A stretch of 64,000 nt of DNA. It comes from a virus. Lineage: Duplodnaviria; Caudoviricetes. The position numbers and the translations under genes were made by a program. The notes beneath the pieces were generated by a model. It was not told the DNA's origin. It worked only from the letters and a program-made list of their open reading frames with translations, and searched no databases. The stretch lies in the IMG/VR virus record IMGVR_UViG_3300031994_000065, positions 1 through 64,000 of that record. The stretch is one strand, 5' to 3'. This document shows, in pieces, positions 20,106-38,924 of this stretch. Positions within the stretch are counted from its first letter, which is position 1. Each line of letters starts with the position of its first letter.

Positions 20106-20137
20106 GGACACACAGATAATGTACTGTGTGTCCTTTG
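20106..20137 (+). terminator. Terminator-like hairpin containing a late promoter (GACA-cacaga-TA, 20107-20118)
   Basis: ggacacacag / ctgtgtgtcc 10-bp stem followed by ttt. Confidence 0.6.
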
Positions 20138-20163
20138 TGACGTTAAAGAAAGGAGGAATAGGA

Positions 20164-22842
20164 ATGTTTAAATTCAAAAACACAGAACCTTCAATTATAA
20201 ACTCATCCGTGTTTAATGTTGCTGAACCTTCTGGTGGTATAGCGACAATCAATTTGTTTATTGATAACACTGAAGATGATTCGTATAGAACAATGGCTGA
20301 ATCAATGAGTGCATTATATCATGCGGTATCATGTAACGATATGGAAATTGCTCTTGAAGGTTTAGGAGATATGTTAAAATCAGCCTGTGAGTTTTTCAAA
20401 ACGATCATTAAGAAAATCGCTGCATTTATCAAGAATACGTTTTACTACCTTATGTCATATGTGACAGATTTCGAGAAATTCATCGATAGATACAAAGAAA
20501 ATATTCAAAACTTCAAGGAGTTTGAGGTTAATGGATATACATATACTATTGACAGTCAACCCATAGACAGTTCGGGAATAACGAATATCATTAATCAATA
20601 TAACAAGAATATCAAAACTATCAACAGCAAGGAGTATAGTGATATTCAAACAATGATTTCCAAAGAAATGGGTAAAGAGTCATTAGGGAAACTTCGTAGC
20701 ACACTATGTGGAAAAACGTCTGGATTTATTAGGCCGGAGAAATTTATTGATGAAATGAATAAACGATTTCGCAATGGAAAAACTTCCACAAGCAACATCA
20801 AAGTCAATTCTGGAACAGTGAATAGTTTTATCGATGAATTTAAAAGATGCAAAGCGATGTTACCGGATGTTAAAGAAGATGGTTATAACGTACAGAGTGT
20901 CTTAGATGACATGGAAAAATTCTTCTATAGTCTACCCAAATATGAATATGTCGATTCTGATGATAAACGCATAAAGCATTATAAGTTATCGACAGATCTC
21001 AAAAAAGGCGATTTTACAGCGGATGAATCGGATGAAGAAGGATATTCCACAGAGTATTACAAAAAACTCACTGCTTATTACAACTTCTGCTATAGGATGT
21101 GTAGAGAGATAGCTGGTATGTATACGAAAGCATATACTACAAAAATCGAAGCCATAAAAGAAGCCATCAGTTTCTATACATCAGTTATTAGAAAAGCGAT
21201 CAGTCCATTTAATGAAAGAGAGACAGATAGTGTTAAATCTTCTAAAGAGTCAGTATCGATAATTCAAGATGGTTATACTGACTGGATGACTGAATATGGT
21301 TTGAACGCATTTAAAGGTGAAGAATTATCGACACATGAGAGAATAAAAGCGTTCAATGAACTCAAGGCTATAGTTAAAACAACGAATACATCTTTTAAGT
21401 CAGAAATACAATATGGTGGCGAAAATTGTGTTGCTATTTTCAAGGCTGCAGGTCGTGGAGATGCAGAGAAAGATGCTAAAAATGCTGTCAGACTTGCCAA
21501 TTCCAAATCAAAAGATTTTGTGTATAGTATACCCAAACCGAGTTTTTTCAATAAAGGGATTCTTGTGAATTACATTTGGGTTTATGCTAAGCATAAAAAG
21601 AAGATGAAACTTCAAGAATCAGTCGGAATTATTCCTGCTATGGAAAATCTTCCTAAAATTCATGTTGGAGATGTCGACGACTATTCGATTCAAGCTATGG
21701 AAGCGATGCATGAGATTGAAGTTGCTAAATGGGATGCTCATTTCCGTGAATATCTCGATGAAATTGATGTTTTGGCCGAAGGTTATCGTCGCGGCTACAT
21801 TCTCATGGAAGATGTAGAAGTGAAGGAGAAATCAGGACAAGATGCAAAAGAATCCACATTCTCCAAGATAATTGAGTTCATCCACACTATCATTGCAAAG
21901 TTTATGGATAAAGCATCTAATCTTTTTAACTCTAATCAAGAATGGTTTGATAAATACTCGGGCAAACTTAATGAAGTTAATGCTGAAGCATATGATAATA
22001 TTAAGATTACGATGCTTGCATATCATAAACAAAATAAGTACGATATACCTAGAACCAGCGTGTCACCAGATGATGCAAGACTTGGCACTGAGAAATTCAA
22101 AACACTTGGAGAAGTTGCCGAATTGATGTACCCCGGAATTTGCAAATTATCTGCCACGAAAGATATTACTGAAGGCACGAAGATATATTTCCGAGGTGGT
22201 TCGAATACAGTTGAAACGTATTCAAATGGTGCAGATGTTAAGAAGCAAGTTACAATGATGGTGGAATGGTGTAAAGAATATACTGATACATGCCATCACA
22301 TAAAAGATCAGATTGATAAAATGACCGAAGAAATGGAAAAGATGGATAAAGCTTACGAAGCATCAAAAGAAGCGTCATATTCTTACGTTCTTTCTGAACA
22401 AGCATTATTGGAAGAAACTGGTCTGGCTTGGTTACCGTTTATTGATTCTAAAGGTAATGCTAAATTCCTTGTGCTCAAAGAAGCAGAAGGTGATGCGAAT
22501 AAAGAAAAGGCTAATAAGGAGAAGAAAGAAGGACAAGACGCTGCTAAAGCTGCTGGTGCAACTGTTGCTAATGATGATAAGAAAGAAACAAAACCTGAGA
22601 CTGAAGAGGAAAGAAAAGCTCGTGAGAAAAAAGAAGCTGATGATAAGAAAGCTAAAGACGATAAAATTTCTAGAGCTCTTGCTGCTAAATACTATTATCA
22701 GGTTAAAGTTAAGGTTGCTACAGCAATGCTCACAATAGCTGAAGAGCGTTTCGTGTCATATATCAAAACATTACGTAATGTAGTTGCTTTGGCTCACATT
22801 GCTGCAGATAAAGCCGAGAAACCCGATAAAGCAAAAAAATGA
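20164..22842 (+). CDS. Internal head protein, paralog family member 4 (two family domains)
   Basis: ALEGLGDMLKSACEFFKTIIKKI and a second KESTFSKIIEFIHTIIAKF module; RBS aaggagga before ATG at 20164. Confidence 0.55.
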   Translation: MFKFKNTEPSIINSSVFNVAEPSGGIATINLFIDNTEDDSYRTMAESMSALYHAVSCNDMEIALEGLGDMLKSACEFFKTIIKKIAAFIKNTFYYLMSYVTDFEKFIDRYKENIQNFKEFEVNGYTYTIDSQPIDSSGITNIINQYNKNIKTINSKEYSDIQTMISKEMGKESLGKLRSTLCGKTSGFIRPEKFIDEMNKRFRNGKTSTSNIKVNSGTVNSFIDEFKRCKAMLPDVKEDGYNVQSVLDDMEKFFYSLPKYEYVDSDDKRIKHYKLSTDLKKGDFTADESDEEGYSTEYYKKLTAYYNFCYRMCREIAGMYTKAYTTKIEAIKEAISFYTSVIRKAISPFNERETDSVKSSKESVSIIQDGYTDWMTEYGLNAFKGEELSTHERIKAFNELKAIVKTTNTSFKSEIQYGGENCVAIFKAAGRGDAEKDAKNAVRLANSKSKDFVYSIPKPSFFNKGILVNYIWVYAKHKKKMKLQESVGIIPAMENLPKIHVGDVDDYSIQAMEAMHEIEVAKWDAHFREYLDEIDVLAEGYRRGYILMEDVEVKEKSGQDAKESTFSKIIEFIHTIIAKFMDKASNLFNSNQEWFDKYSGKLNEVNAEAYDNIKITMLAYHKQNKYDIPRTSVSPDDARLGTEKFKTLGEVAELMYPGICKLSATKDITEGTKIYFRGGSNTVETYSNGADVKKQVTMMVEWCKEYTDTCHHIKDQIDKMTEEMEKMDKAYEASKEASYSYVLSEQALLEETGLAWLPFIDSKGNAKFLVLKEAEGDANKEKANKEKKEGQDAAKAAGATVANDDKKETKPETEEERKAREKKEADDKKAKDDKISRALAAKYYYQVKVKVATAMLTIAEERFVSYIKTLRNVVALAHIAADKAEKPDKAKK

Positions 22843-22892: not shown

Positions 22893-24329
22893 TTAACCAA
22901 CTCCGGGAAGCCCCTTCCCACCAGTAACTCCACCCGATGTGGATTGAACCAATAACGGTGACGGAACAACTTGAGTTTCAATCGCGCGTTTGATTGCGTC
23001 GTCTATAGGTTCTTTCTTAACCATATAGATATTTGCTGTTAATGTCAACTGCTCGCCGTTGCGATTGAAGATGAAATCCGTTTTTCTTATTCTGTAATAC
23101 CCGCTGTAATTTGGATCGATGTTGGAATCGAGATAATGTAGGATAAATTCCTTATTGGGGGTTAGCGCCCACATATATGGATCAAACACAGTCATCCGGA
23201 CCGTGATGTTTCCTTCTTGTATATCGTTAGCGTATTGAGTCTGCATATAAGGATTCGCGTTAGCGTTGTTATCGACTCGCGTGTTTCCTTTACCACGTTG
23301 CTCTCCAGTCCCTTCAATATGAGTTGGAGCGTTGGTCTTTGCATTTAATGCGGTCAAGTTATTCCCCATTATGTGGTCATTGATTGCCGCAGGATTATGC
23401 ATTGTAACACGATGTGGGTCAGGGAAAATGTAATACTCTTTTCGTTCATCACAGGTTGTAGTACCAGACAGCCAACTTTCTGACAGTTTCGTTTTATTGA
23501 CAGTGAATATAGTAGTCGGGTACTCACCTTCTTCAACACAGTCTGGATGTCCAGTCTTATTCATGATATATACACAGCGGTAATCGAAAAAAGTTAACGT
23601 ACCAGTTTGATGCATTCCGTATATATCAGAAAGATACTGGAATAAATTCAACAGGTTTTGAGGTTGAATAATGCATTGGTCTATCGGATCTTTGTTATCT
23701 GACGGACTCATGAGTATTGCATCGAATCCGTTCTTAGATAACATATCCGCACAGATTGTAGGAATATCTGTATTTGAATAAACTTTGTTAACTACGTTCT
23801 TGCTGTTGACCAAATCTCTCTCGACGTAGAAATAGTAGCTTACACGTTCTCTCACGTCTGCCGGCATATTTTTACCGCCAAGATCATTAACGCTTCCACC
23901 AGCGGCAGCAATATTCTGTAAATCATTCACGGTCATATTGTAAATAGCCGCATCCATAAACGGAACGTTGCTTGCGATTACCGGAATGAAAATCGTGTCG
24001 AATACTGTTTCGCTACTGACGGGTTCAGTACGAGAACCGGAACCTGACACGTCATAACCTTCACATCTGAGAGCGATATGGAATTTGACCTCATTTCGAC
24101 GAACTTCAATGAATTCTTTGACTTTTGGATTGACGACGAAATGGATCATAAGCATCGGGTACAAATTATTGTCGTAATCTTTGCCGATATACATCTCGCT
24201 TATTGAACCTGGGACCATATCAACAGGTCCTTCAAGTTCCGGTGCCAATAACTCAAATTTTGAGATACGGTAACGATAGAGTTTATGAGACATCGCAGCG
24301 ACTTCTTTTTCGTACAGCTCTTTTACCAT
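22893..24329 (-). CDS. Baseplate hub protein (T4 gp27-like)
   Basis: 478 aa; IGKDYDNNLYP...IQPQNLLNLFQYLSDIYG...FFDYRCVYI and a C-terminal beta-barrel pattern (LTPNKEF...SGYYRI...F) fit the hub fold. Confidence 0.5.
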   Translation of the reverse strand: MVKELYEKEVAAMSHKLYRYRISKFELLAPELEGPVDMVPGSISEMYIGKDYDNNLYPMLMIHFVVNPKVKEFIEVRRNEVKFHIALRCEGYDVSGSGSRTEPVSSETVFDTIFIPVIASNVPFMDAAIYNMTVNDLQNIAAAGGSVNDLGGKNMPADVRERVSYYFYVERDLVNSKNVVNKVYSNTDIPTICADMLSKNGFDAILMSPSDNKDPIDQCIIQPQNLLNLFQYLSDIYGMHQTGTLTFFDYRCVYIMNKTGHPDCVEEGEYPTTIFTVNKTKLSESWLSGTTTCDERKEYYIFPDPHRVTMHNPAAINDHIMGNNLTALNAKTNAPTHIEGTGEQRGKGNTRVDNNANANPYMQTQYANDIQEGNITVRMTVFDPYMWALTPNKEFILHYLDSNIDPNYSGYYRIRKTDFIFNRNGEQLTLTANIYMVKKEPIDDAIKRAIETQVVPSPLLVQSTSGGVTGGKGLPGVG

Positions 24330-24372
24330 TCAAATCTCCTCCTTTACAAAAAAGTTAGAGAGCATAAATTTT

Positions 24373-24442
24373 GGGAAAAAGAATCCGCACCGCATTTGTT
24401 GAATGCGGCGTCCGATACCGTAATACGGCGCGGACTCTTTTT
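24373..24442 (-). terminator. Three-way-junction 3' element/terminator (copy A)
   Basis: Outer stem AAGAGUCCGC/GCGGAUUCUU encloses two hairpins, then UUUUU; homologous to 33363-33426. Confidence 0.7.
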
Positions 24443-24446
24443 GGTT

Positions 24447-24875
24447 TTAAGCTTCGACGAGATTGATGTGGATCAATTTTTGCGAATTGTTGAAATCGTC
24501 AATCATTTTTTCAAAGCGGGTTTTAACAACCGGTTTTTCGACGAGTTCGAAATACCAGCGTTCGAAACCGTTGTCGATTGACGGGGTCGCATAAAACGCG
24601 TTGAGTTTCTCGATCGCTGTTTCCAGCGAATCAACGCGCATGTCAACGACCGGTCCCAAAGCCGCTTTGGACAGTGTTACCTGTCCTTTGCTTTTCCAGA
24701 GAGGGTTGACGCTGAAGTAACGCGCTTTTCTCGTGGCGAAGCAGGGGAACCAGTTGCCGTTGTCGTTTTCCGCAATGATTGCAACATCGAGTTGTTTGGC
24801 TTTGTTGTCGTGCAGGTCGACAAAACCATTCAACATTGCGAACGTTGCGATTGCGATTGCCGAAGTCTTTTCCAT
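24447..24875 (-). CDS. Early cassette cargo A, hypothetical protein
   Basis: ATG at 24875 spaced from AAGGAGG; flanked by a conserved leader and 3' element. Confidence 0.7.
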   Translation of the reverse strand: MEKTSAIAIATFAMLNGFVDLHDNKAKQLDVAIIAENDNGNWFPCFATRKARYFSVNPLWKSKGQVTLSKAALGPVVDMRVDSLETAIEKLNAFYATPSIDNGFERWYFELVEKPVVKTRFEKMIDDFNNSQKLIHINLVEA

Positions 24876-24879
24876 GATA

Positions 24880-24993
24880 AACATCCTCCTTAAAGATGTG
24901 GATCGTAGGTTTTCGTCAATTTAGTACAAGAGAACTCCTACTAAACTCTCATACACCACGATAATATATATTCATAGGTGGGGGCGATGTCAG
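24880..24993 (-). promoter_or_regulatory. Early promoter (CTGACA-N17-TATATATTAT) plus structured leader, copy A
   Basis: Near-identical to 33163-33275 and 34004-34117. Confidence 0.85.
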
Positions 24994-25042
24994 ATCGGAA
25001 AATTAGGTATATTGCTATAATACATGAAAAAGATAGATAACA

Positions 25043-25066
25043 AAGGAGGGAACTAAACCCCTCCTT
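25043..25066 (-). terminator. Terminator hairpin
   Basis: aaggaggg / ccctcctt inverted repeat at the end of the nuclease gene. Confidence 0.6.
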
Positions 25067-26195
25067 AAAATAATGATTTTTTCGAACGTGCAGAATATTG
25101 ATTCAGTTCGACGACATTAATTGGACTCATCTCGAAATATTTAGAATTCAGATTTTTCAATGCGTCATTCTCATACTTATCCACAAGCTGTTTCGTTATG
25201 TTGAGTTGTTGCGGTTCTGAGACCATGCCAAGTTGTCTGTCTAAATCGACGCACATGATACTGTTAGCAATTCGCTCTTTGTTATCATCATTAGGACCGT
25301 CTTTGATTGCCATTATAAGGTGTTCTAATCCAATTATTTCAGCTTCACTTATATCCAGCTCTTTGAACAATTTGTGTAATCTCTTGTATATGGTTTTCCA
25401 TCCACAACCTTTGATCTTTCCGATACCGCGACGTTTATCTCCAACTATGGCAAGAATGAAAGTAATCAGGTATGCAGGAAGTTTGTGTGAATTCTTTATA
25501 TCGTGTTTCTCTCTGATGATGGTAAAAAGATTCTCTTTGGTTACTATGTAACTTTCGTCACCTTTTGGATACATAACCAAGAAGTTCTTGTTGACGTATT
25601 GCAAATCGTATTCGTCTCTGGTTATCAAAATATTCAATTGACCATCGAGTGCTTTAGAGTTGCATAACAACAGAGGAACGAGAGAACTTTCGAGTCTATT
25701 TGATGTTACCAAATATACACCTTCCACATAACCCACTATGGTTCTGAGAGCTTTGATGACAGACTCCAGAACCATATTAGTTGCCTCGTAGTTTGGATTG
25801 TCGGTGTAATCGTAAATGAATCTCTCGCGATAGTGTTTAAGAAACATCGTATTATTCAGTGTCGTGTATTTATCGTATTCATTCATGAATAGAACGATAT
25901 TAGTCTTGATTCTGTTTTTGGTAAAGAATCGACGATAATGCCCGGCAAGATTCAGAATGTTACTGATAATGGAAAAATGAAAGTTCTTGGTTTCAGTTTT
26001 ATCCATAGAAAGAATGAATTCTTCTACGGTTTGGTTATGTATGCAATGAATAATTGATTCGAGATTGATGAATATATTTACTCGATCTATTACTTCTCTA
26101 ATACCAACAGAACCAAATAGAAGATTCATTTTTTCGAACTTAATCTTGTGAGCATTGAATATCTTATCAATCGTTTCAGATGAACTTGAAATCAT
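25065..26195 (-). CDS. RNase H / 5'-3' flap exonuclease (T4 RNase H-like)
   Basis: NIFINLESII N-terminal PIN-like motif, ITRDEYDLQY, and helix-3-turn-helix GDKRRGIGKIKGCGWKT. Confidence 0.7.
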   Translation of the reverse strand: MISSSSETIDKIFNAHKIKFEKMNLLFGSVGIREVIDRVNIFINLESIIHCIHNQTVEEFILSMDKTETKNFHFSIISNILNLAGHYRRFFTKNRIKTNIVLFMNEYDKYTTLNNTMFLKHYRERFIYDYTDNPNYEATNMVLESVIKALRTIVGYVEGVYLVTSNRLESSLVPLLLCNSKALDGQLNILITRDEYDLQYVNKNFLVMYPKGDESYIVTKENLFTIIREKHDIKNSHKLPAYLITFILAIVGDKRRGIGKIKGCGWKTIYKRLHKLFKELDISEAEIIGLEHLIMAIKDGPNDDNKERIANSIMCVDLDRQLGMVSEPQQLNITKQLVDKYENDALKNLNSKYFEMSPINVVELNQYSARSKKSLF

Positions 26196-26270
26196 TTCAA
26201 TCCCTTCTTCAGATAAAAAATATTGGGCGGGAAAGGTTCCCGCCCTTAACGTGTGTTTCCTTGTCAGATT

Positions 26271-27158
26271 TTATTTCGTCGTGATGTGTTCGATGATTTC
26301 GCGGATGTCACTGCCGCCATTGCCGAGTTCGCGCAAACGTGCGACTCGGTACATCACATTGCTGCCTTGCTGAGCTGTATCGAGCAGAATGACACGGTAA
26401 GCTCTGTTGTGCAAGAACAGCGCACTCAGAACGGCGTCCGGGTTGAGTTCGATATAGCAAAATGCTCTGCCGTTTTTGTCGCGTTTCTGAGACTCGTTCA
26501 CTACGAGTTTGCTCGTATCGACAAACGGTTTGACAAGCTCTTTCAATTTTGCATCCAAACGAACGTGTGCGCCACGCGCTTTGCCGCCGAGCAATTCGAG
26601 TTCGATGTCGTTAGCCGAGCGACCATTCACGACAAGATGTTCCATCTTCGGAAAGATGAGATACATCTTGGGAATGTCGTTCAGTACTGCAGCGCCATCC
26701 CCGAAATAGATGTAGCGGTAACCGTGATGCTCGAAGTATTTTTCGAAATACGTCGAAATGTCGCGACTCGTGAACGTGAAGATCGACCCACTGGGATCGA
26801 GTCCGAGACGATTGTCGTTCGCGCGGTTCCCAATGACACATCCGCCTTCGTAGTTATACAAACCATTCGGATCGCTCACGTCGGATTGTGGACGAGTGAA
26901 AGGTTTACCACCTCCGTCTTTCGGACGTTGCGGTTGCGGATTCGGCTGACGCTGTTCGCGCTGTTGTTGACGCGGTTGATGTACTTGCTGCTTGGGTTTC
27001 GGAGTAGGTTCAGGTTTAACCACCGGCTCTGCCTCCTCTTCTTTTTCGAATTCGTCGTTGTCTTCAAACGGATCGGGCAATTTGCTCGCTGCCGATTTGA
27101 CCGTGCTTTCTTCGCCGACTGCACGGTACAAGCGAATTTCCTCGCTGCTTACTTCCAT
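26271..27158 (-). CDS. Hypothetical early protein
   Basis: 295 aa, RBS AAGGAGG, early motif at 27203-27212, own terminator at 26226-26246; P/Q-rich linker. Confidence 0.7.
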   Translation of the reverse strand: MEVSSEEIRLYRAVGEESTVKSAASKLPDPFEDNDEFEKEEEAEPVVKPEPTPKPKQQVHQPRQQQREQRQPNPQPQRPKDGGGKPFTRPQSDVSDPNGLYNYEGGCVIGNRANDNRLGLDPSGSIFTFTSRDISTYFEKYFEHHGYRYIYFGDGAAVLNDIPKMYLIFPKMEHLVVNGRSANDIELELLGGKARGAHVRLDAKLKELVKPFVDTSKLVVNESQKRDKNGRAFCYIELNPDAVLSALFLHNRAYRVILLDTAQQGSNVMYRVARLRELGNGGSDIREIIEHITTK

Positions 27159-27202
27159 GAGTAATGCGCCTCCTTCTTTAATTTGTGGTCGTAACCGAGT
27201 TT

Positions 27203-27212
27203 ATAATATATA
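27203..27212 (-). promoter_or_regulatory. Early promoter motif TATATATTAT
   Basis: Exact motif ~45 nt upstream of the start codon. Confidence 0.65.
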
Positions 27213-27287
27213 CTTAGAAATCGCGTTAAAATACAGCCACTCCTATAGTTAGTTGTGACTGCATTTATAATAGATTAGCGATTCCTT

Positions 27288-28334
27288 TTATCTGTTGACT
27301 TTTGCAAAATTTCTTTCCATAAGTGACCTAACTTGCGGAGCCCAGTTATAGTTATCCGGGCAGTAGACGGGGTTGATCGAACTGACCGTATCTAAGCCGC
27401 GTGCAAAATAACACTCATTGATAAGTTGCCCGAATGCATCGATATTTTCTTTTTTCGAGCTGTAACTTAATCCCATCATTCCGAAAAGGTTATTATCATT
27501 CAACGCCATAAATGAAGTCCCATGACCGCTTTCGAGTTGTGCAACAGCCAAAGCAAATACGGCATTGACTCCGTATGTGGATTCCATTTCGTAGAACACA
27601 TGACCTAACCCTTCGAGACCGGTTCCGGCAACAATCGATTCCAGTTCATCCATACTCAATCCACATCGTTCGGTTATTACGTCTGAAAGCGGATAAACCG
27701 GTGGAATAAGGTTGACTCTGTAATGTTCGATTTTGCCACTGCTAAGAAACGGTTTGACGTGTTCATAGTAATACGAACTGGGATAGTAATCGACTTTAAC
27801 GAATCGTTTTTCAATATATGCTGCTTCGCCGATGCAATAGAAGTTGCTGTTGTAGATTAACGGAACAATCTCGTATGTATTGTACTTGTCTAATTGTATC
27901 GGTTTGTCGTCTTCAGCAGGCTGTTTGTAACATATCGCGTCGAGTTCGTTTCGAGTGAATAACACGCCGACGATTTTTTCTGTCGAAGGCTTCTCAAATT
28001 TGTCAAGTTCGCAGTACGCTCTGTATTCGCCAGCTACTCCCCATTGTGGATTAATGGGGCTGACCGAGATAGCAGTACCACTAGGAAGCGTGCCAATGAG
28101 TCGAGCCGAAGAATCGGGTTCGGCATACATCGGAACATCTTGTGTAGAGACGCAAACCAAGTCTGCAAATTTGTCTATTTCTACAAGGGGTTCCGCTTCC
28201 GCAACGTTTGTCTGAACAATCTGTTCATCTGTCGCCGGATTGACTCGAGGATTGAAGAAGTTGTGATTGATTCCGGCTCCAATCAGCATCGCACCAGTTA
28301 CACAGATCGCCGCGATTAGATGTTTAGTATACAT
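27288..28334 (-). CDS. Glucosaminidase-family (GH73) peptidoglycan hydrolase with N-terminal signal/anchor and SH3 domain
   Basis: GLGHVFYEMESTYGVNAVFALAVAQLESGHGTS...NNLFG catalytic motif; VPMYAEPDSSARLIGTLPSG is SH3-like; hydrophobic N-terminus. Confidence 0.85.
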   Translation of the reverse strand: MYTKHLIAAICVTGAMLIGAGINHNFFNPRVNPATDEQIVQTNVAEAEPLVEIDKFADLVCVSTQDVPMYAEPDSSARLIGTLPSGTAISVSPINPQWGVAGEYRAYCELDKFEKPSTEKIVGVLFTRNELDAICYKQPAEDDKPIQLDKYNTYEIVPLIYNSNFYCIGEAAYIEKRFVKVDYYPSSYYYEHVKPFLSSGKIEHYRVNLIPPVYPLSDVITERCGLSMDELESIVAGTGLEGLGHVFYEMESTYGVNAVFALAVAQLESGHGTSFMALNDNNLFGMMGLSYSSKKENIDAFGQLINECYFARGLDTVSSINPVYCPDNYNWAPQVRSLMERNFAKVNR

Positions 28335-28362
28335 TAGTGGATTCCTCCTTTGAGATTGAGTT

Positions 28363-28374
28363 TACCACTATGTC
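28363..28374 (-). promoter_or_regulatory. Late promoter RACA-N6-TA
   Basis: Minus strand GACA-tagtgg-TA. Confidence 0.7.
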
Positions 28375-28537
28375 CGCAGCTTTTAGGAAATAACCGTATC
28401 TTATTTTGCTTAAATCAAGCAATATTTGAGTTACACCAAACCAATTATTAAAATTTCATTAAAAATGTACTGGTCAAGATATATACATCGAATCATTGCG
28501 TGTATTCTGATGTGAATATCGGCTGATTTGGGCTGAA

Positions 28538-28549
28538 GACAAAGCGATA
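28538..28549 (+). promoter_or_regulatory. Late promoter RACA-N6-TA
   Basis: GACA-aagcga-TA. Confidence 0.7.
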
Positions 28550-28577
28550 ATACACTACACAGAAAGAAGGTGAAGAA

Positions 28578-29888
28578 ATGGGTCAATTATTACGAGGACA
28601 GATGTTCGGAACAGGTTTTGAGAAGCAAATTTATCATGATAATCATTCTGAGTTCGAGCAGAAAGTCCATAGCCAGTATGCGAAATATCTCAGTGAACTT
28701 CCAATATTCACTGAATACTTTCACATAGTTAAAGCATTAACTACGGAAGATACCGGTTTGTTAAACATTGATAAATTGACTGGAGACAGCTCACCGTTCA
28801 GATACAATCTCATTAAAGATTTTCCTCTGTTTGGTCTCGAGCAGATTCTTCTCGATATCGAAGATAATGATGATGTTGGTTTACAGACAAACTACGAGGG
28901 TGAGGCAATAATTCTTCCACAAACTATAACTCCGTTACCGGATGATGCATTTATTGCAACAGCTCTTGGAAAGAAATGGTTTTTCCGTGTAATCGAAATT
29001 CATTACGACACAATTCTTGCGAAGAACTATTACAAGATTAATTTTGTGGTAAAAGGTGTCGATAATGGTTATTATTACGAGGATTATCTTAAGAAGGTAA
29101 ACGACACATTCATTTGCGTTTACGACAATTATGGAACACAAGACGCATTTCTCATAAAGGAAGAGAATTATGATATTACTAATAAGCTCCAGAAAATGGC
29201 AGATGAATTATCAAGGAAATATCTCACTTTCTTCTATAATGAGAAATATAATGCGTTGATGGTTAAGAATCCACATGGTTACAATATGCTGTATGATGCT
29301 TATGTGAATTACTTCTGTAATGAGCAATCGATATTTGCTCAGAATCCAAGAAACTTTTGGAATTATAAGTTCTATGTAGAAACCAGACCGGAATTTGAGT
29401 TCTTCTATAACGCAAACTCAATTCAATCGGTTGTCATTAACAAAGATTTGGAATTGATTCAATCACCAAGATTTATGCGGTATTATGATACTATTCCCAC
29501 TTTCACCGATTCAATATTCCAGTTCTATGGAGATTTTGACACTTCCGGAATAACGATAAGTGAACGACATATAAATCCATTTGGTAGACAGATTCATCCG
29601 TTAATACCTCAAGATTTGTTTGAAGCAATCTGCTCTAATGGAAACGTTGATACCACAAATTTGATCTACAATGTCTTGGTGAAATACATCAATAATGATA
29701 TTGAAAGTGTAGGAAAACTTTTAGGTAATTTCAATGACAAAATTCGCGTTAGACCCACATACTTGGATTATGTCTTGATACCTCTATTCCTGTACATTCT
29801 TTATCAATACAAGAAGTCTGTTACCAAGACAAACAATAATTATGTTGAGAATGAACAGCTTCGACAAAAACTTAAAATCTCACACTGA
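28578..29888 (+). CDS. Virion structural protein, probably neck/head-closure
   Basis: SPFRYNLIKDFPLFG...EGEAIILPQTITPLPDDAF...FRVIEI is a beta-rich motif recalled from phiKZ-like virion proteins; late promoter. Confidence 0.5.
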   Translation: MGQLLRGQMFGTGFEKQIYHDNHSEFEQKVHSQYAKYLSELPIFTEYFHIVKALTTEDTGLLNIDKLTGDSSPFRYNLIKDFPLFGLEQILLDIEDNDDVGLQTNYEGEAIILPQTITPLPDDAFIATALGKKWFFRVIEIHYDTILAKNYYKINFVVKGVDNGYYYEDYLKKVNDTFICVYDNYGTQDAFLIKEENYDITNKLQKMADELSRKYLTFFYNEKYNALMVKNPHGYNMLYDAYVNYFCNEQSIFAQNPRNFWNYKFYVETRPEFEFFYNANSIQSVVINKDLELIQSPRFMRYYDTIPTFTDSIFQFYGDFDTSGITISERHINPFGRQIHPLIPQDLFEAICSNGNVDTTNLIYNVLVKYINNDIESVGKLLGNFNDKIRVRPTYLDYVLIPLFLYILYQYKKSVTKTNNNYVENEQLRQKLKISH

Positions 29889-29891
29889 AGA

Positions 29892-30233
29892 ATGGAGGAA
29901 TTTGAGATGCTTAAGACATTACGTTCACAATTGGCAACTAAAAAGGCAGATGCTTCGTTTGAAGGATTTGTCCTTGATGCTATTGAACGCGCACCTCAGA
30001 GAGATATCATGCTCGAAGAATGCGATGCTCCGGAATGTTGGCATGAAGACGACGATTACTGCGATGAAGATATTGGCAAGTTGATCGATGCTCTTCCCGA
30101 ATCCGACATCGATTTGGATAATGAAGCGATTATTCAAGGAATTATTCGTGGTCGCGACGAACAGGGTAACGAGAAAGATATGTCAGTGGAAGAATGTTGC
30201 GAGGCGTATATACCGCCCACTGAAGAAGTTTAA
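29892..30233 (+). CDS. Small acidic protein, probably virion
   Basis: 113 aa, co-transcribed; contains FEG and MLEE motifs like the head proteins. Confidence 0.55.
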   Translation: MEEFEMLKTLRSQLATKKADASFEGFVLDAIERAPQRDIMLEECDAPECWHEDDDYCDEDIGKLIDALPESDIDLDNEAIIQGIIRGRDEQGNEKDMSVEECCEAYIPPTEEV

Positions 30234-30239
30234 GAAAGG

Positions 30240-30758
30240 ATGAAACTAATGGAAACTGATATGACTACATTCGTAGACAAGAAACTTGTAAAAGTTACAG
30301 ATCGTGGTCCGATTATGCCGCTCGGTGGAATCTATGGACCCACTCTTCCTCAGATTATGACCGTTAAAACGATTGCGATTCTCTTGCAAAAGGGTTATCA
30401 CGTTACGGAAATTCTGAATAATAAGTCTGAAGTTAAACTCAGTCTTTCGAACTACAATGTCGACATCAATGGCGATGGTGGTGAAGGTCTTAAAAAGGTT
30501 AAGAAACCTGATGAAGATATTAAGCCTCTGCCGAAGAAAAATGCCAAAGTCGAAACTCCTGCGCCTGAAGCAAAAACTGAAAAACCTGCTGAAAAAGAAT
30601 CGGTTAAAGTTGAGACTGCCGTCGTTGAGAATAAGATTACCGTATCAGCGGCTGGAGGTAAGGCTGAAGCCGATTCTAAAAGGAATGGTAATGACGCTGG
30701 AGGTCTTATGAGTACCAAAAAAAATAAGCCTAAGGCGGACGAACTTACCTCTAAGTAA
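30240..30758 (+). CDS. Hypothetical protein with K/E/P-rich tail
   Basis: 172-aa ORF ending before a terminator. Confidence 0.6.
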   Translation: MKLMETDMTTFVDKKLVKVTDRGPIMPLGGIYGPTLPQIMTVKTIAILLQKGYHVTEILNNKSEVKLSLSNYNVDINGDGGEGLKKVKKPDEDIKPLPKKNAKVETPAPEAKTEKPAEKESVKVETAVVENKITVSAAGGKAEADSKRNGNDAGGLMSTKKNKPKADELTSK

Positions 30759-30777
30759 TTTGGGATTAAAACGAGAA

Positions 30778-30822
30778 AAAAAAACCGGGGAGCAATCTGA
30801 TAGAATTTGCTCCCCGGTTTAA
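30778..30822. terminator. Bidirectional terminator
   Basis: aaaccggggagcaa / ttgctccccggttt stem, with an A-run on the left. Confidence 0.85.
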
Positions 30823-30847
30823 CCGTTTTTTGAACTGCTGCTACTGA

Positions 30848-31027
30848 TTAGCGGCGAGTTCCACAAGTGCTATTGTCACCCATGGTCGTCACCTCCTTTC
30901 AGTAACAGGAGGGTGGTTTTACGTTTCATTTACCTCCCCCCACATTTATTAGATTTAAGTCGCAGCTACTAATTTCACTGCGTCTTATACCTATATAATA
31001 TATATTTTCGATTCTAAGATATGTCTA
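30848..31027 (-). other. Small early transcription unit carrying only two micro-ORFs (30876-30929, 17 aa; 30848-30883, 11 aa)
   Basis: TAGACA-N17-TATATATTAT at 31027-30995; RBS GGGGGAGG and AAAGGAGGTG; terminator at 30778-30822. Confidence 0.5.
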
Positions 31028-32414
31028 AATCGATTTCTCCAGTTCTACTGACAGAAATACCTTCAATTGTCGATTCCAAAACCGTTTTGGTTCTGTAGAA
31101 TGTGATTCTCCGTACAGGCATCTTCGGCAATTTTCTTTCTCTGGAACGTAAGAAAATGTCAGATATATGAATGAAGTAATTCTTGTGAACATCGTTATCA
31201 AACATTTTCACCATAGTTACGATTGACTTTTCTTCGTCTCGATACACATGAACCGGGATATATATCGTATCTTTCATCTTCACTGCTACTTTGAATGCAG
31301 TATCTCGCTCAATATCGTCATTGTCTCCACATATGTAATATCCGTCTATGATGCCTCTGCGGTCCATTTCCAATACATCGTGCGCAACACTGGTTCCCTC
31401 TTTAATTGGTGGGAATCCAAAATTTTCGACCATGTTTAACAGAGCCATATCACATATCTTATTGACGATGCGATAATTGCTTAAGAATTGATGGATTTCT
31501 TCATCGGAGAAATTTCGAAAGTTTGAAGGTCTGGCTAAGAAACCGAAATCATTCATATTACTGAGATTAATTCCATTAGTAGCCCAATCTCTTGGATTTA
31601 GAAGTTCATCTTTCATTCGCCAGTCATATTCGCTAGTGAGTGGCCATTGGTCATCATCCGGTTTACTTTGTCTAATAACAAAGTCAATATCGTCACACAT
31701 CTTAGTGATTATCGGAGCATCAATATGCTTCTTGATTTCACCAAATGCATTTATTAACATATCTTTGTTAGCAACTCGCCGAATCTTTTCTAACATATTG
31801 GCGTCGTACACCGATTTTGTATAGAAAAAATTTCTGGTTATGTCGTAGCAAAGTTTCAGGTCTGTGTCATAGACGTAATCCGAAATTCTTGTGGTGTTAA
31901 ATCGTCCGTTCAGAATATAATCTTTATCGAGATAATTCTGAGCGGATTTCTTAATAGCTTGGTTTATTGCGTCATTTAATCTGTCACTAAACTGACATGA
32001 ATGATGTTGATGCGCTGGATCTACCAGTTGATTCCTGAAGATATTAGACCATTTATCAAATGTGAGCACACCTTCAGCATAATCAGTCGCGTTCATTATG
32101 ACGTGTTTTTCTTCCATTGTGATGGTTGGGGCTTCTAAGTAATCTATAGAAGACGATTCTGCTGCGATAATATCTTTATCTGCGTATGGTTTAAATGCCG
32201 AATATTTCTTCAGTTTGACTTTCATGTTGTATTGTTTGGCGAGTCTGTTTATATTCGCAGCTAATTGCTTACGCTTTTTTGGTGGGCATGTATGGAAGTA
32301 CGCAATCGCACTACGGACGTGATTTTCGTCGGGCATTGGAAAAGCTCTATCTTCCGGAAGACCGAACTGATCTGCGGGGAGTTCTTTTCTTTGAGCACTA
32401 GAAAGTTTAGGCAT
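31014..32414 (-). CDS. DUF6582-like N-terminal domain protein, putative virion protein
   Basis: MPKLSSAQRKELPADQFGLPEDRAFPMPDENHVRSAIAYF is a recognisable small phage domain; late promoter upstream. Confidence 0.6.
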   Translation of the reverse strand: MPKLSSAQRKELPADQFGLPEDRAFPMPDENHVRSAIAYFHTCPPKKRKQLAANINRLAKQYNMKVKLKKYSAFKPYADKDIIAAESSSIDYLEAPTITMEEKHVIMNATDYAEGVLTFDKWSNIFRNQLVDPAHQHHSCQFSDRLNDAINQAIKKSAQNYLDKDYILNGRFNTTRISDYVYDTDLKLCYDITRNFFYTKSVYDANMLEKIRRVANKDMLINAFGEIKKHIDAPIITKMCDDIDFVIRQSKPDDDQWPLTSEYDWRMKDELLNPRDWATNGINLSNMNDFGFLARPSNFRNFSDEEIHQFLSNYRIVNKICDMALLNMVENFGFPPIKEGTSVAHDVLEMDRRGIIDGYYICGDNDDIERDTAFKVAVKMKDTIYIPVHVYRDEEKSIVTMVKMFDNDVHKNYFIHISDIFLRSRERKLPKMPVRRITFYRTKTVLESTIEGISVSRTGEIDLDIS

Positions 32415-32431
32415 CGTTTATCACCTCTTTT

Positions 32432-32443
32432 TAGTGCTTTGTC
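32432..32443 (-). promoter_or_regulatory. Late promoter RACA-N6-TA
   Basis: Minus strand GACA-aagcac-TA. Confidence 0.7.
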
Positions 32444-32510
32444 GCGAGGGGTAAAAATAGGTGAAATTCGGAGAAAAAAAAACCACGCGGTTTTGCGTGG
32501 CTGAATTGTT

Positions 32511-33158
32511 TCAATATGCGAAAGTCATAGGAATACCCATGTCTTTCAACATGTTGAAACAGCTGATGAAACCTTCTCTTGGTTTGAGATACTCAAACCG
32601 AAAGAAGACTTTCCAATTTTCGCCGTAGCGTTTCTTGTAAACTTTTTCCGCTTCTCCGGATTCGAAATTCGTGACGTAGTTTTCGTACGCCTTTTTCGAA
32701 ATCCAGAACCCCACGATTTTTTGCGGAGCGACAAACGCCTCGGTGTAGGCGCTGTATTCGTCGTCGAGTTTTTCATAGTCGTCAACGATGAACTCCTCAC
32801 GAATTGATGGGTAACGCTTCCCATCAATCGTGTAGCTCCCGCAATCAACGGAGGCCATTAACGACGTTTCGCCTTTCACATAAACGCCTATTACGCCGAG
32901 TCCTCCGTTCATGAGCCTAGATTCAGGCCCGGGTTTCGAGCAACTTATCTCGGCTCCGGTGCCAAGAATGGTCAACAGTTTTTCGAGTGCGACCGCAGGC
33001 GACTGCGATCTGTTGACAGCGTTGAGGCCGTGCGCCCAGACCACTCCGTCAGTTCCTCTCGGAACATGACGTGATTTGAGCGCCTTAGCGTTTTCGAACG
33101 CCTTTCTCTCCTCGTCGTTCAAATCATCTGATTTCACACCATTGACGTAAATGCTCAT
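32511..33158 (-). CDS. Early cassette cargo B, hypothetical protein
   Basis: ATG at 33158 spaced from AAGGAGG; terminator at ~32474-32502. Confidence 0.7.
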   Translation of the reverse strand: MSIYVNGVKSDDLNDEERKAFENAKALKSRHVPRGTDGVVWAHGLNAVNRSQSPAVALEKLLTILGTGAEISCSKPGPESRLMNGGLGVIGVYVKGETSLMASVDCGSYTIDGKRYPSIREEFIVDDYEKLDDEYSAYTEAFVAPQKIVGFWISKKAYENYVTNFESGEAEKVYKKRYGENWKVFFRFEYLKPREGFISCFNMLKDMGIPMTFAY

Positions 33159-33162
33159 TTCA

Positions 33163-33275
33163 AACATCCTCCTTAAAGATGTGGATCGTAGGTTTTCGCA
33201 ATTTAGTACAAGAGAACTCCTACTAAACTCCTATACACCACGATAATATATACTTATGGGAGAGGGTAATGTCGG
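33163..33275 (-). promoter_or_regulatory. Early promoter (CCGACA-N17-TATATATTAT) plus structured leader, copy B
   Basis: Leader differs from copies A and C by a few bases. Confidence 0.85.
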
Positions 33276-33292
33276 AACGTAAAAAGGAGAAA

Positions 33293-33330
33293 AAGCCAGA
33301 ACCTATTAAGGTTCTGGCTTTGTCACGCTT
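33293..33330 (-). repeat. Terminator-like hairpin duplicated at 34338-34374
   Basis: aagccagaacc-N6/N5-ggttctggctttgtcacgctt occurs at both sites. Confidence 0.85.
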
Positions 33331-33362
33331 CTTGTTGTGGGAGGTAAAAAATATCTCCTTGA

Positions 33363-33426
33363 GGGAAAAAGAATCTGTGCCGCAAATGTGTGCGGTGTCT
33401 GTGCCGATTTACGACACAGATTCTTT
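33363..33426 (-). terminator. Three-way-junction 3' element/terminator (copy C)
   Basis: Homolog of 24373-24442 with compensatory CGC/GCG to UGU/ACA changes. Confidence 0.7.
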
Positions 33427-33432
33427 CGTGAA

Positions 33433-33999
33433 TCATTTCCAGCCTTTTGCGCAGATAACCTTCGGAATATATTTCCAATACTGCACCGATTGCGCGCAGG
33501 TGTAAAGACGTATTGTCTTGTCAGCCCAACACACAAGCTTTCCATTGTTATATGGAAGTAGTATTGTTTCATATAAACTGATAGTGTTTTTGTCGCGTTT
33601 GAAACTGCGCCCGTTGAAATGGAAGTCTTGATGGCTACCATTACAACAAGAGATGAGTGTGTACTCTCCCTTGTCGAATTTGTTCGCCATCGAGAAATGA
33701 TTTTCTTTCTTGCCTTCGATAATGAATTCTGCGAATCCTCCGTGAACGCAAGCAACCAGCCCCTGATCTGTTACTAACGGGACTGCTTCCATCTGGACGG
33801 CGAACCTTTTCAAGAATGACCATATGGTCAATTTCTTTCCAGTATCCGCGTATCTCACATCGGTGTACAACGACGCAGTTCCGTTTTTGACTTTGAAGTA
33901 CGCGATAACGTACATCGCGCCGAACAGAATTGCCCCTCCTGTGAGACCCCAAATGACGTTAATAACGGAGACGATCGAATTTACCAGAGCGTTTTTCAT
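33433..33999 (-). CDS. Early cassette cargo C, membrane-anchored hypothetical protein
   Basis: N-terminal TM segment (VINVIWGLTGGAILFGAMYVIAYF); ATG at 33999. Confidence 0.7.
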   Translation of the reverse strand: MKNALVNSIVSVINVIWGLTGGAILFGAMYVIAYFKVKNGTASLYTDVRYADTGKKLTIWSFLKRFAVQMEAVPLVTDQGLVACVHGGFAEFIIEGKKENHFSMANKFDKGEYTLISCCNGSHQDFHFNGRSFKRDKNTISLYETILLPYNNGKLVCWADKTIRLYTCAQSVQYWKYIPKVICAKGWK

Positions 34000-34003
34000 T
34001 TCA

Positions 34004-34117
34004 AACATCCTCCTTAAAGATGTGGATCGTAGGTTTTCGTCAATTTAGTACAAGAGAACTCCTACTAAACTCTCATACACCACGATAATATATACTTAGG
34101 AGGGTGGGCGATGTCAG
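34004..34117 (-). promoter_or_regulatory. Early promoter (CTGACA-N17-TATATATTAT) plus structured leader, copy C
   Basis: Leader is identical to copy A. Confidence 0.85.
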
Positions 34118-34138
34118 ATTGAAAAATTATATCGTGTC

Positions 34139-34328: not shown

Positions 34329-34385
34329 GCGGACAATAAGCCAGAACCTTGTAGGTTCTGGCTTTGTCACGCTTTTTGTAGTTTG

Positions 34386-36671
34386 TCAGATTGAAATCAT
34401 CGGTACGGTTTTGTGATGCCACGATTCGTGTTCTTTGCGTTTGCAGTGTGGGCATTCGTTTTTTATAATACCGGTATAACCACAGACCGGGTCGCGGTCG
34501 ACAGGGTGGTTCACACTGAAATATCCCATATTTGCATCGTGCATGGCTCGTACAAGTTTTTCAAAAGCTTCTACATTTTGGAGAGGATCCCCATTGTACT
34601 CAATATAGCTTATCGCGCCAGCATCACATTTTTCATGGTATGGTGCTTCGATACGAATTTTATCGATAGCTCGTATCTTATAATACACAGGAACATGGAA
34701 ACTGTTCGTGATGTACAATCTATCGGTGACACCACGTATGATTCCATAATCTTTGCGATTCGCTTTTTGAAATGTATTTGCTGTCCCTTCGGCTGGAGTT
34801 GAAAAGGTTGACCAATTCATTTTTTCTTCAACTTTAAACTTGTCGGTTTTGTCACGAAGATGTTGGACGATTTCCAATCCGAACCGTTGCGAATCCTCAT
34901 TCTCTCCATGATGTTTTCCTGTTAATGCTATTAAAGTTTCTGCAAGACCACAGAATCCAATAGAAAGGGTAGCATTTTTCAAAACTTTTCGTATAGTATC
35001 ATTTGGCGATAATTCATCGCTTCCCATCCAAACGCCTTGACCCATCAAAAACGGAAAATTGAAAACGTGTTTATCTGCAATAATTTGAAAACGGTAAAGA
35101 AGATAATCGTGACTAAGTTGAATATAGTGATCGTATATCTCGTAGAAACGTTTTATGATCTCTTCTTGTGGTGCGTTGTTTCCAAGTTGACGTTTTGCTT
35201 CGAGTGCAAATTTTGGAAGATTAAGAGTCACAAAACTAAAATTTCCTCTTCCACCAGTTTCTTCAGGTCCATTCACATTTCCGATAACACGGGTACGGCA
35301 TCCCATCGTTGCAGCGTATGTATTATAATTTCCTGGTTTATAATACTTCAAGTTAAAAGTGGCATCACACGATACAAAGTTCGGGTACAACCTCTTAGCA
35401 CTCACTTCACATGCACGCTTAAATAAGTCGTAATTTGGATCGCCTGGGTTGAAATTGATTCCTGATTTAATCTGAAAAATCGAAATTGGAAATAGTGGAG
35501 ATTCTCCCTTTCCCATTCCAGCATCAATAGCGTTGAGAGTTTCTCTTATTGCCAATCGTCCCTCTGGAGAAGTATCCATACCAAAGTTGATAGAACTGAA
35601 CGGAACTTGCCCGCCTGACCTAGCGTGTAAGCTATTAAAATTATACACCATTGCTTCCATAGCTTGACGTGTCTCTTCTTCAGTGGCATCTTTTGCTATT
35701 TCATAAATTGAATGAAGACCATCCCATTCGTTTCGCTCGACTTCCATGAAAACTTTACAGAAAACTCTCCATATTTCTTCTATGGTTTCCCAATAATCAC
35801 TAGAATTCTTAATGTCTTTATCTTCGACGTAATGTATCTTTGTTCTATCGAATTCTTCTTTGACTTCTTTACTAACCGTGTGCTTGTCGTACATGTTCGA
35901 TGTCACAAATTGTCCAAATTCAACCGTTTTAGATATAATTTCTTTCACGAATGTTTTTCTGATCCCTTCAGCCATCGCATAATCTTCTGCATTTAGTGAC
36001 TGGCCTCCGAAACAGTCGTTCTGGTCTGATTGAATTGCCACACATGCTAAAGCTGCATATGATCGAATAGAGCCTGGTTCTCTTATATGACCATGACCTG
36101 TTGAAAACCCACCGTGAAACAGTTTCAGTAGATCAATTTGACAACAATTCAACGTTATCATTGAGAAATCGTTATCGTGTTCATGAATGAAATGTTGACG
36201 ATGTGCTTCAGCAAATTCTTTTGGTTGGGTATTAAGCGCGAATTCTTTTGCTCCATCTGATCCAAGTTTAAGCATTATGCCCATTGGACCATCAGTGTTA
36301 ATATTTGCATTTTCCCTCTTATCGTCCATCGCTGAGGCATCAGTAAACAAAATGTCTTTATAAGTTTGCATGAGATTCTTCTTCGATTCCCGACGAAGCA
36401 TATGTTTATATCTGTAACAAATATACTTCTTGGCTATCTCGAAAAATCCGTGTTGCATAAGACGACGTTCCACGACATCTTGAATATCTTCGACTGATAT
36501 TTCAGTACGATCACCAATATCGGACTCTATCTGTTCAATGATATTCTCAAGATCGCGTTCGGTCATTTGTTCGACGGAAGCGTTGTTAGCTCCAACAATC
36601 GCTTTGTAAATTTTCGATCGGTCGTATGAAACCAACGAACCGTCGCGTTTGATAACGCGTTCAAGATTCAT
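34386..36671 (-). CDS. nrdD: Anaerobic (class III) ribonucleoside-triphosphate reductase with ATP cone, lacking the C-terminal glycyl-radical segment
   Basis: VIKRDG ATP cone, TLNCCQID, ARSGGQVPFSSINFG, MGCRTR, GNFSFVTLNL, STPAEG, C-terminal CxxC pair; no RITGY-type motif. Confidence 0.93.
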   Translation of the reverse strand: MNLERVIKRDGSLVSYDRSKIYKAIVGANNASVEQMTERDLENIIEQIESDIGDRTEISVEDIQDVVERRLMQHGFFEIAKKYICYRYKHMLRRESKKNLMQTYKDILFTDASAMDDKRENANINTDGPMGIMLKLGSDGAKEFALNTQPKEFAEAHRQHFIHEHDNDFSMITLNCCQIDLLKLFHGGFSTGHGHIREPGSIRSYAALACVAIQSDQNDCFGGQSLNAEDYAMAEGIRKTFVKEIISKTVEFGQFVTSNMYDKHTVSKEVKEEFDRTKIHYVEDKDIKNSSDYWETIEEIWRVFCKVFMEVERNEWDGLHSIYEIAKDATEEETRQAMEAMVYNFNSLHARSGGQVPFSSINFGMDTSPEGRLAIRETLNAIDAGMGKGESPLFPISIFQIKSGINFNPGDPNYDLFKRACEVSAKRLYPNFVSCDATFNLKYYKPGNYNTYAATMGCRTRVIGNVNGPEETGGRGNFSFVTLNLPKFALEAKRQLGNNAPQEEIIKRFYEIYDHYIQLSHDYLLYRFQIIADKHVFNFPFLMGQGVWMGSDELSPNDTIRKVLKNATLSIGFCGLAETLIALTGKHHGENEDSQRFGLEIVQHLRDKTDKFKVEEKMNWSTFSTPAEGTANTFQKANRKDYGIIRGVTDRLYITNSFHVPVYYKIRAIDKIRIEAPYHEKCDAGAISYIEYNGDPLQNVEAFEKLVRAMHDANMGYFSVNHPVDRDPVCGYTGIIKNECPHCKRKEHESWHHKTVPMISI

Positions 36672-37932: not shown

Positions 37933-38039
37933 CAAATCCCTCCTTAAGGGATCGTAGGTTTTTTCATCTTAGTAGTGAGCTGCCTACTTAACTCTTCTAC
38001 GCGTATATAATATATAAATGTGGGTGGGGGTGATGTCGG
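37933..38039 (-). promoter_or_regulatory. Early promoter (CCGACA-N17-TATATATTAT) plus type-2 structured leader, copy D
   Basis: Identical to copy E from ggatcgtagg to the promoter. Confidence 0.85.
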
Positions 38040-38040
38040 A

Positions 38041-38245
38041 TTGAAATTAAACCCTTCTTAAAAAAGGTAATTCGATTCCGATGATGAATCATATAAGGAG
38101 GCAAACATCATGAAATTTGGTGGTATTACACTTGGTGGTCGGAACATTATCGTACCAACCAGCAGTCCAGTGGAGATAAATCTTTGGTTCTCTACTAAAT
38201 GCTTTTGCTTTACCCCATACTTCTTCTCGGGTATTGCGAGGTTGG
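38041..38245 (+). pseudogene. Chimeric duplication relic: 5' end of the 38978 gene fused to an amidase-gene fragment
   Basis: 38041-38151 matches 38906-39031 and 38146-38231 matches 37215-37300; joined at ATTATC microhomology. Confidence 0.85.
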
Positions 38246-38904: not shown

Positions 38905-38924
38905 ATTGAAATTAAACCTCTCTT

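Follow-up and report, generated by a model that had tools for sequence, protein, structure and literature searches.

A predicted terminator with internally duplicated arms at the ends of early-gene cassettes in an AR9/PBS1-like giant phage

Is an RNA element in which one strand can choose between two partners a regulated switch, or does it simply end transcription? The question is raised by two related sequences, here called copies A and C, on the minus strand of a 64,000-nucleotide (nt) stretch of viral DNA (positions 1 to 64,000 of the IMG/VR record IMGVR_UViG_3300031994_000065; hereafter the window). An earlier reading of the letters (the original prediction) had described the two sequences as a covarying, possibly bistable three-way junction that was selected as a switch rather than as a plain terminator. 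The viral record holding the window is a giant-phage fragment, about 32% complete, and on its sequence the phage is a metagenomic relative of AR9 and PBS1; the samples behind it appear to be animal-associated metagenomes. The reading that we favour, and hold to be likely though well short of certain, is that the element is an intrinsic (factor-independent) terminator which closes early-gene cassettes and whose arms have been duplicated internally, so that one internal strand serves as a placeholder and not as a regulated switch.

The minus strand contains both sequences quoted in the original prediction letter for letter, A at 24417-24439 with its continuation to 24376 and C at 33403-33425 with its continuation to 33366; no exact match to either is expected by chance. 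Copy A spans 24376..24442 from its A-tract to its U-tract, and copy C spans 33366..33427. The element is about 65 nt long and was divided into the 5' arm (S1), an internal repeat of the 3' arm that includes the linker of the original prediction (S2), a repeat of the inner 5' arm (S3), the 3' arm (S4) and the U-tract (U5). On the minus strand, these segments lie at 24437-24422, 24421-24410, 24409-24402, 24396-24381 and 24380-24376 in copy A, and at 33423-33407, 33406-33397, 33396-33391, 33387-33371 and 33370-33366 in copy C. The two copies are about 75% identical and have the 3' flank UUUUUCCC in common. Each ends an early-gene cassette and begins 5-13 nt past the stop codon of a small gene on the coding strand, the stop codon of the 145-amino-acid (aa) gene lying 8 nt upstream of the A-tract of copy A; in relatives, the element begins up to about 25 nt past the stop codon. 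In both copies, the G+C-rich stem is followed at once by U5.

RNAfold returned a single hairpin as the minimum-energy fold of both copies, with 21 base pairs (bp) in A and 21-22 bp in C, and the three-way junction for neither. Compared with dinucleotide shuffles, the folding energies were -33.1 kcal/mol for A (z -5.7) and -30.2 kcal/mol for C (z -7.5). As a partner for the 5' half of the junction's hairpin 1, the 3' half of hairpin 2 is just as good, and with this pairing the closing stem continues as a single helix of 21-22 bp. In copy A, the long hairpin (-33.1 kcal/mol) lies next to the junction (-31.9 kcal/mol), and two tandem hairpins that sequester S1 reach -23.7 to -25.7 kcal/mol; in copy C, the corresponding values are -30.2 to -30.9, -23.1 to -23.8 and -20.4 to -21.1 kcal/mol. 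Across the long helix, A and C differ by double compensatory changes at four pairs and wobble-mediated single changes at three, and no pair is broken; in the junction model, copy C loses the top pair of hairpin 1 plus two to three pairs of hairpin 2. The three-pair compensatory change that had been claimed for the closing stem holds for two pairs, which are double changes from C-G to U-A with no broken pair; the third is a single change from G.U to A-U. Likewise, AUU and AAA had been placed in the loop of hairpin 1, and the two A/C differences there are double compensatory changes of the long helix.

Homologues were found through the conserved 478-aa protein encoded directly downstream of copy A, which has 25 homologues in a large protein collection. 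The Logan/ENA contigs of its orthologues were fetched, and the element was sought in the fetched flanks. Variants occur directly upstream of the orthologue in L068/L069, L070/L071, L074/L076, L075, L081-L084, L085/L088, L086, L087/L089, L090/L091 and L095, one element per locus. Nine further distinct variants together with A and C make 11 distinct sequences in five lineages, which share ancestry; L095 was counted as an extra. The L095 element (L095:881-962) is of the L068 type with a single G-to-A change in S1 that makes an A-C mismatch with both S4 and S2, the sole uncompensated stem change seen. In L094, whose protein is 55% identical, the cassette in the same slot ends in a simple hairpin of 13 bp whose outer stem is similar. 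The more distant relatives L072 and L077-L079 have neither cassette nor element, and their 478-aa gene directly follows a 378-aa gene.

The 11 variants fold with energies of -26.6 to -45.2 kcal/mol, and a long hairpin of 16-24 bp followed by a U-tract is the minimum-energy fold in 10 of them, L086 folding as the junction. In constrained folds of each sequence, the junction-type fold lies 1.2-9.3 kcal/mol above the long hairpin in those ten variants. When the variants were aligned with MAFFT, the long helix was 93.3% paired and had double changes at 10 of its 21 pairs, a result matched by 0 of 500 shuffles, and slid controls reached 42-56%. The covariation claimed in the original prediction is thus real. 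Covarying pairs are found in the inner half of the long helix (20-61, 21-60, 23-58 and 26-55), and the closing stem that the junction has in common with the long helix is 96.5% paired. For hairpins 1 and 2 of the junction, the corresponding figures are 72.7% and 56.8%, which are underestimates because the interior aligns poorly across lineages. Taken with the minimum-energy folds, these figures do not bear out the three-way junction as the favoured fold of the element. L085 and L087 have an A-C mismatch in hairpin 2 together with an improved long helix. U5 to U7 follows the stem directly in 10 of the 11 variants. The sense strand is more stable than the antisense strand in 10 of the 11 variants (in L074, -29.5 versus -10.9 kcal/mol), with many G.U pairs, which points to selection at the RNA level in the direction of transcription.

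What sets the element apart lies inside its loop. In all 11 variants, S2 is a partial repeat of S4 able to base-pair with 7-10 nt of S1. S3, in turn, repeats inner S1 and pairs with inner S4. The partners of S1 are mutually exclusive in every variant: either S2 (7-10 bp) or S4 (13-17 bp). The observation that the linker changes in step with the arms stands: the linker reads CGGAC in A, ACAGA in C, and in either copy it is complementary to that copy's 5' strand. Loss of this complementarity in further homologues had been named as grounds for giving up the original prediction; no loss was found, since it is kept at 7-10 bp in all 11 variants and all five lineages. The core of the S2/S4 repeat differs by lineage, being CGGA in the group of A, an exact 9-nt repeat in C, GCGGAUU in L070, GAUUCGGG in L074 and GGCG(C)GGUUUC in L090, in which the S1:S2 pairing is kept through a one-base register shift. 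The fold of S1 with the interior beat shuffles of the interior in all 11 variants, modestly in each (p 0.01-0.26), and Fisher's combination over the five lineage representatives gave about 0.01. When interiors were swapped between lineages, the lineage's own S1 gave the best total (rank 1 of 120 permutations), as did its own S4; by duplex energy alone, the ranks were 2 for S1 and 1 for S4 of 120. The persistence of an internal segment that can pair with the stem in every variant is real and unusual.

Prefix folds showed S1:S2 plus S3:S4. At full length, the S1-sequestered state lies 4.8-18.4 kcal/mol above the optimum, and the Findpath barrier from this state to the terminator fold is 4.1-6.5 kcal/mol, so that the energetics do not bear out the term bistable. 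The Findpath barrier from the junction to the long hairpin was 5-13 kcal/mol in 9 of the 10 variants computed and nothing in L074. The low barrier of the first transition implies that S4, once made, should take S1 quickly by branch migration. In L086, the linker is deleted and only an extended hairpin 1 is left, which overlaps 2-3 nt of the closing stem.

We propose the following course of events. Because the arms are partly duplicated in the loop, in the order S1-S2-S3-S4-U-tract, three nested or alternative folds are possible. During transcription, the S1:S2 hairpin and the hairpin of S3 with inner S4 would form first, as the prefix folds suggest. The emerging outer part of S4 would then displace S2 from S1 by a short branch migration, for which the computed barriers are low, and the geometry suits such a displacement because outer S4 emerges 5' to 3' in the order needed for zipping along S1 outward from the junction. 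The product would be a stem of 8-13 bp closed against the U-tract, that is, the three-way junction, and this form would trigger release. At equilibrium, the RNA would relax to the single hairpin of 16-24 bp indicated by the minimum-energy folds and by the covariation. S2 probably stays matched to S1 because it serves in a folding intermediate as placeholder for the 5' arm; holding S1 in this way may be useful to a module that stands behind unrelated cargo genes.

The element has the features expected of an intrinsic terminator: a stable G+C-rich stem, a U-tract, a position just after a stop codon on the same strand and compensatory change in the stem. It also lies at the end of a transcription unit, with an early promoter upstream and a new promoter or promoter-like motif downstream, and it would insulate what follows, which is a conserved gene with a candidate late promoter in the case of A and the next cassette in the case of C. 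Several points weigh against the reading of a terminator with a placeholder strand. Termination is predicted here from sequence and fold, and the placeholder role of S2 is our own inference. In several variants, the junction and the long hairpin differ by 1-3 kcal/mol, which is within the error of the nearest-neighbour models used; these models treat multiloops crudely. In L090, the U-rich run sits within the extended stem and not 3' of it. Moreover, a plain terminator needs neither S2 nor S3, as the simple hairpin of L094 illustrates, and this reading does not account for the complementarity of S2 to S1 in 11 of 11 variants.

Further copies were sought with covariance model R1, based on A and C, and covariance model R2, based on the 11 variants; copy A scored 84-104 bits. 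In about 187 kb (the 81-kb record and about 106 kb of abutting or overlapping contigs), R1 and R2 hit only A and C, so that no third copy (B) was found, and the AR9 genome gave no match to the element model. The other sites with GATTCTTTTT, at 9373, 30592 and 52093, were considered as copy B and rejected because they have no such structure; the one at 30592 is within an open reading frame (ORF). Pattern scans of IMG/VR for the 3' end, the closing stem and the interior gave 19, 23 and 3 matches, all of them chance matches with unrelated interiors, and a scan of JGI metagenomes with the conserved 3' flank gave two matches, both by chance. Locus searches of IMG/VR with the 478-aa protein and with the 191-aa protein of the cassette closed by C found nothing.

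The genes closed by the two copies are unrelated to each other. The cassette closed by A carries the 145-aa gene (24447..24884, minus strand), which was taken from the ORF list and has no Pfam or PHROG family. The cassette closed by C carries a 191-aa gene (33433..34008, minus), whose product has one distant homologue only in a collection of 5.8 billion proteins, on a 585-nt contig without flank. Most proteins of the region have no Pfam family, and no megablast match to the region was found in sequenced phages. A motif search placed AR9-type early promoters upstream of both genes: TATATATTAT-N6-G at 24954..24970 (minus), followed by a conserved 70-nt leader, for cassette A, and a second at 34078..34094 (minus) for cassette C. 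They match the early consensus of AR9, which has been defined experimentally as AAATATATATTAT-(6N)-G (PMC5312081).

Altogether, five small minus-strand genes each lie behind a near-identical block of about 120 nt containing TATATATTAT-N6-G. These blocks of promoter and about 70-nt leader (24885-25005, 33168-33287, 34009-34129, 37946-38046 and 38799-38911, minus) are 74-97% identical. The five genes are mutually unrelated, and the block is also present in contigs G001 and G002, in which neither a copy of the element nor a homologue of the local proteins was found. The end of the record (G000:81121-81294) is 100% identical to G001:27408-27581 and to G002:1-127, the overlap being internal in G001 and at the contig start in G002, with the break beside the promoter-leader repeat. 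G000, G001 and G002 come from a single phage or from phages that are nearly identical, and G001 differs completely upstream of the overlap, which indicates a mosaic or a chimera.

Directly downstream of copy A, the 478-aa gene (22893..24329, minus) encodes a protein 25% identical to a hypothetical protein of AR9 and PBS1; its only relatives among isolates, at about 25% identity, are in AR9, PBS1 and three other jumbo phages of Bacillus, including Goe21 and Internexus, and the link to AR9 was checked by tblastn. Between copy A and this gene, an AACT-N6-TA motif (24345..24356, minus) precedes the Shine-Dalgarno sequence and is a candidate late promoter on the strength of its conservation in relatives, being full in L068, L074 and L095 and reduced to AACT without TA in L070. 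As the late consensus of AR9 is AACA-(6N)-TA/G (PMC5312081), the motif may be a late-promoter variant of that type (AACA-N6-TA). The AACT-N6-TA letters recur in L077, where they form the tail of a terminator. On the plus strand, in-frame tandem repeats lie at 18232-18416 (24-nt period) and 19382-19471 (18-nt period), ahead of a 907-aa ORF at 20119-22842.

After copy C, a second and simple hairpin terminator (33292..33321, minus; 45 nt downstream of C, found by a terminator scan) is followed by the next early promoter. It belongs to a repeat family of three copies with a conserved 5' flank (33292-33338, 34340-34382 and 39599-39628, minus), two of which bracket the cassette carrying C; the arrangement looks like the outcome of an insertion of the cassette, either through recombination at this terminator or with duplication of it. 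Next to this cassette, the anaerobic ribonucleotide reductase NrdD is encoded by one 761-aa ORF (34386-36671). In L068 (6422-8986) and L081 (6554-9117), NrdD is divided between two ORFs, of 349 and 409 aa, about 285 nt apart, and this gap could be an intron or a mobile insertion. In L068 and L081, the 144/145-aa cassette and the 478-aa gene directly follow the NrdD block, which in the window is 10 kb away beside C; by this difference in placement, the copies of the element mark a rearrangement boundary.

S2 may be kept matched to S1 by RNA-level selection for a folding intermediate, by selection for tunable or conditional termination, or by concerted mutation of a duplicated hairpin. It is possible, though we think it unlikely, that the element is a selected conditional terminator, in which S1:S2 acts as an anti-terminator inside the terminator loop and sets read-through into the downstream gene, the outcome being decided by a phage factor, by the identity or speed of the polymerase (virion versus non-virion RNA polymerase) or by a ribosome at the nearby stop codon. 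The lineage-specific S1:S2 pairing in all variants, with its ranks in the swaps, would fit such a role, as would the prefix folds that beat interior shuffles in every variant. The G.U pairs of S1:S2 and the register shift of L090 fit selection on the RNA better than copying of the DNA. In addition, the conserved flanking genes are adjacent and on one strand in relatives that have no cassette, so that late transcripts may have to cross the element. However, the S1-sequestered state is far above the optimum, and with a barrier of only 4.1-6.5 kcal/mol S4 should win quickly unless a factor stabilises S1:S2. No loop, junction or linker sequence is conserved across the lineages, and no sensor in the form of an aptamer or leader peptide was found, although a protein-binding site may still be present; in the whole window there was no Rfam match at the gathering score, and around A only noise (for example Thr_leader, E 1.8). 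The missing linker of L086 and the hairpin 2 mismatch of L085 and L087 also speak against a switch. The 478-aa gene keeps its own conserved promoter-like motif, and copy C is backed by the second terminator and a fresh promoter, which leaves read-through there without an obvious target. Of the proposal of a selected switch in place of a plain terminator, then, the lineage-matched pairing of three strands stands; the lack of a sensor, the weak competitor, L086 without its linker and L094 with a plain hairpin do not agree with it. Rather doubtful, in our view, is the more specific idea that the decoy makes the terminator specific to a polymerase or a stage, such that early transcripts of the virion RNA polymerase stop and a late factor or the non-virion RNA polymerase reads into the 478-aa gene. 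This may happen if S1:S2 is stabilised or the strand exchange is outrun, and the cassette does interrupt a gene pair that is contiguous in relatives.

Selection may also be left out altogether. A tandem duplication inside a terminator hairpin could have produced S2 and S3, and the match could have been kept by mutational processes such as template switching in quasi-palindromes or recombination between co-infecting variants; we regard such a non-adaptive relic as improbable. The order S1-S2-S3-S4 is exactly what tandem duplication of a hairpin would give, and cassettes and flanks have been shuffled, the gene order differing between the window and L068/L081. Comparison with L086 and C revealed parallel C-to-U changes in copy A at the equivalent position of S2 and S4 with S1 unchanged, which resembles copying, not compensation, and is a hint in this direction. 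On the other hand, template switching on S1 should yield perfect Watson-Crick complements, and the G.U pairs in S1:S2 together with the strand asymmetry hint at selection at the RNA level. The repeats, of just 4-10 nt, are short for gene conversion, and the architecture is kept across five lineages with differing arm sequences. Least credible, and to us very improbable, is an element that works in DNA or in processing, either as a cassette-boundary recombination site or mobile-element end, or as a three-way-junction RNA that cleaves itself or is processed by an RNase. The cassette boundaries at which the elements lie are indeed also rearrangement breakpoints between relatives, and a 21-bp helix could conceivably be a substrate of RNase III. 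But each genome has just one or two copies, the element itself is not flanked by a target-site duplication, the strand asymmetry favours RNA, the junction nucleotides are not conserved between lineages, and no ribozyme or other Rfam family matched even at E up to 10. A hammerhead-like three-way-junction ribozyme was rejected because no conserved catalytic core was seen at the junction; a DNA cruciform or mobile element was rejected by strand asymmetry and copy number; and a dispersed repeat similar to repetitive extragenic palindromes or miniature inverted-repeat transposable elements was rejected because such repeats have many dispersed copies, and here about 187 kb held two and each relative locus one.

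Read as a terminator with duplicated arms, the element has counterparts in known systems. Operons of AR9 end at predicted hairpin terminators (PMC5312081), and repeated terminator motifs are known in phiKZ-like phages (PMC11512511). Like the intrinsic terminators of the giant phages phiKZ, 201phi2-1 and AR9, the element has a G+C-rich stem with a U-tract directly behind it and often an A-tract ahead of it, closely follows a stop codon, and is repeated with sequence conservation within a genome, separating transcription units. Unlike them, it carries in its loop partial copies of both arms that track the arm sequence across lineages, and its RNA can form a long hairpin, a three-way junction or two tandem hairpins. 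The expression platforms of riboswitches and attenuators, such as those of the pbuE and yxjA purine riboswitches, likewise rely on mutually exclusive pairings of one strand, with the competitor transcribed first and a terminator that would form by branch migration. The element differs from these platforms in that no sensor was found, in that it stands at a gene's 3' end instead of in a 5' leader, and in that it carries its competitor within the terminator loop instead of upstream of it; the competitor is also much weaker than the terminator. Of the marks of an attenuator, exclusive pairings are present; a sensor was not found, and by model estimates neither comparable energies nor a persisting barrier is seen. 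Tandem or compound terminators resemble the element in having two adjacent hairpins before a U-tract, which is consistent with an origin by hairpin duplication, but here the first hairpin has no U-tract of its own and the second is 8 nt from the U-tract. Those 8 nt pair back to the 5' strand of the first hairpin, so the two hairpins are not independent terminators.

On present evidence, the element amounts to an ordinary terminator in a structural variation of modest interest. AR9-like giant phages have two non-canonical multisubunit RNA polymerases, one in the virion and one non-virion, and to our knowledge almost nothing is known about how these enzymes terminate. For co-transcriptional strand displacement, a terminator family with a conserved, co-evolving internal competitor offers a compact test case from nature. 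If the competitor does tune read-through, it would represent a new anti-terminator layout. If it does not, the element would be a context-independent terminator module that travels with exchangeable early cassettes, and it would be of some use in phage annotation and synthetic biology.

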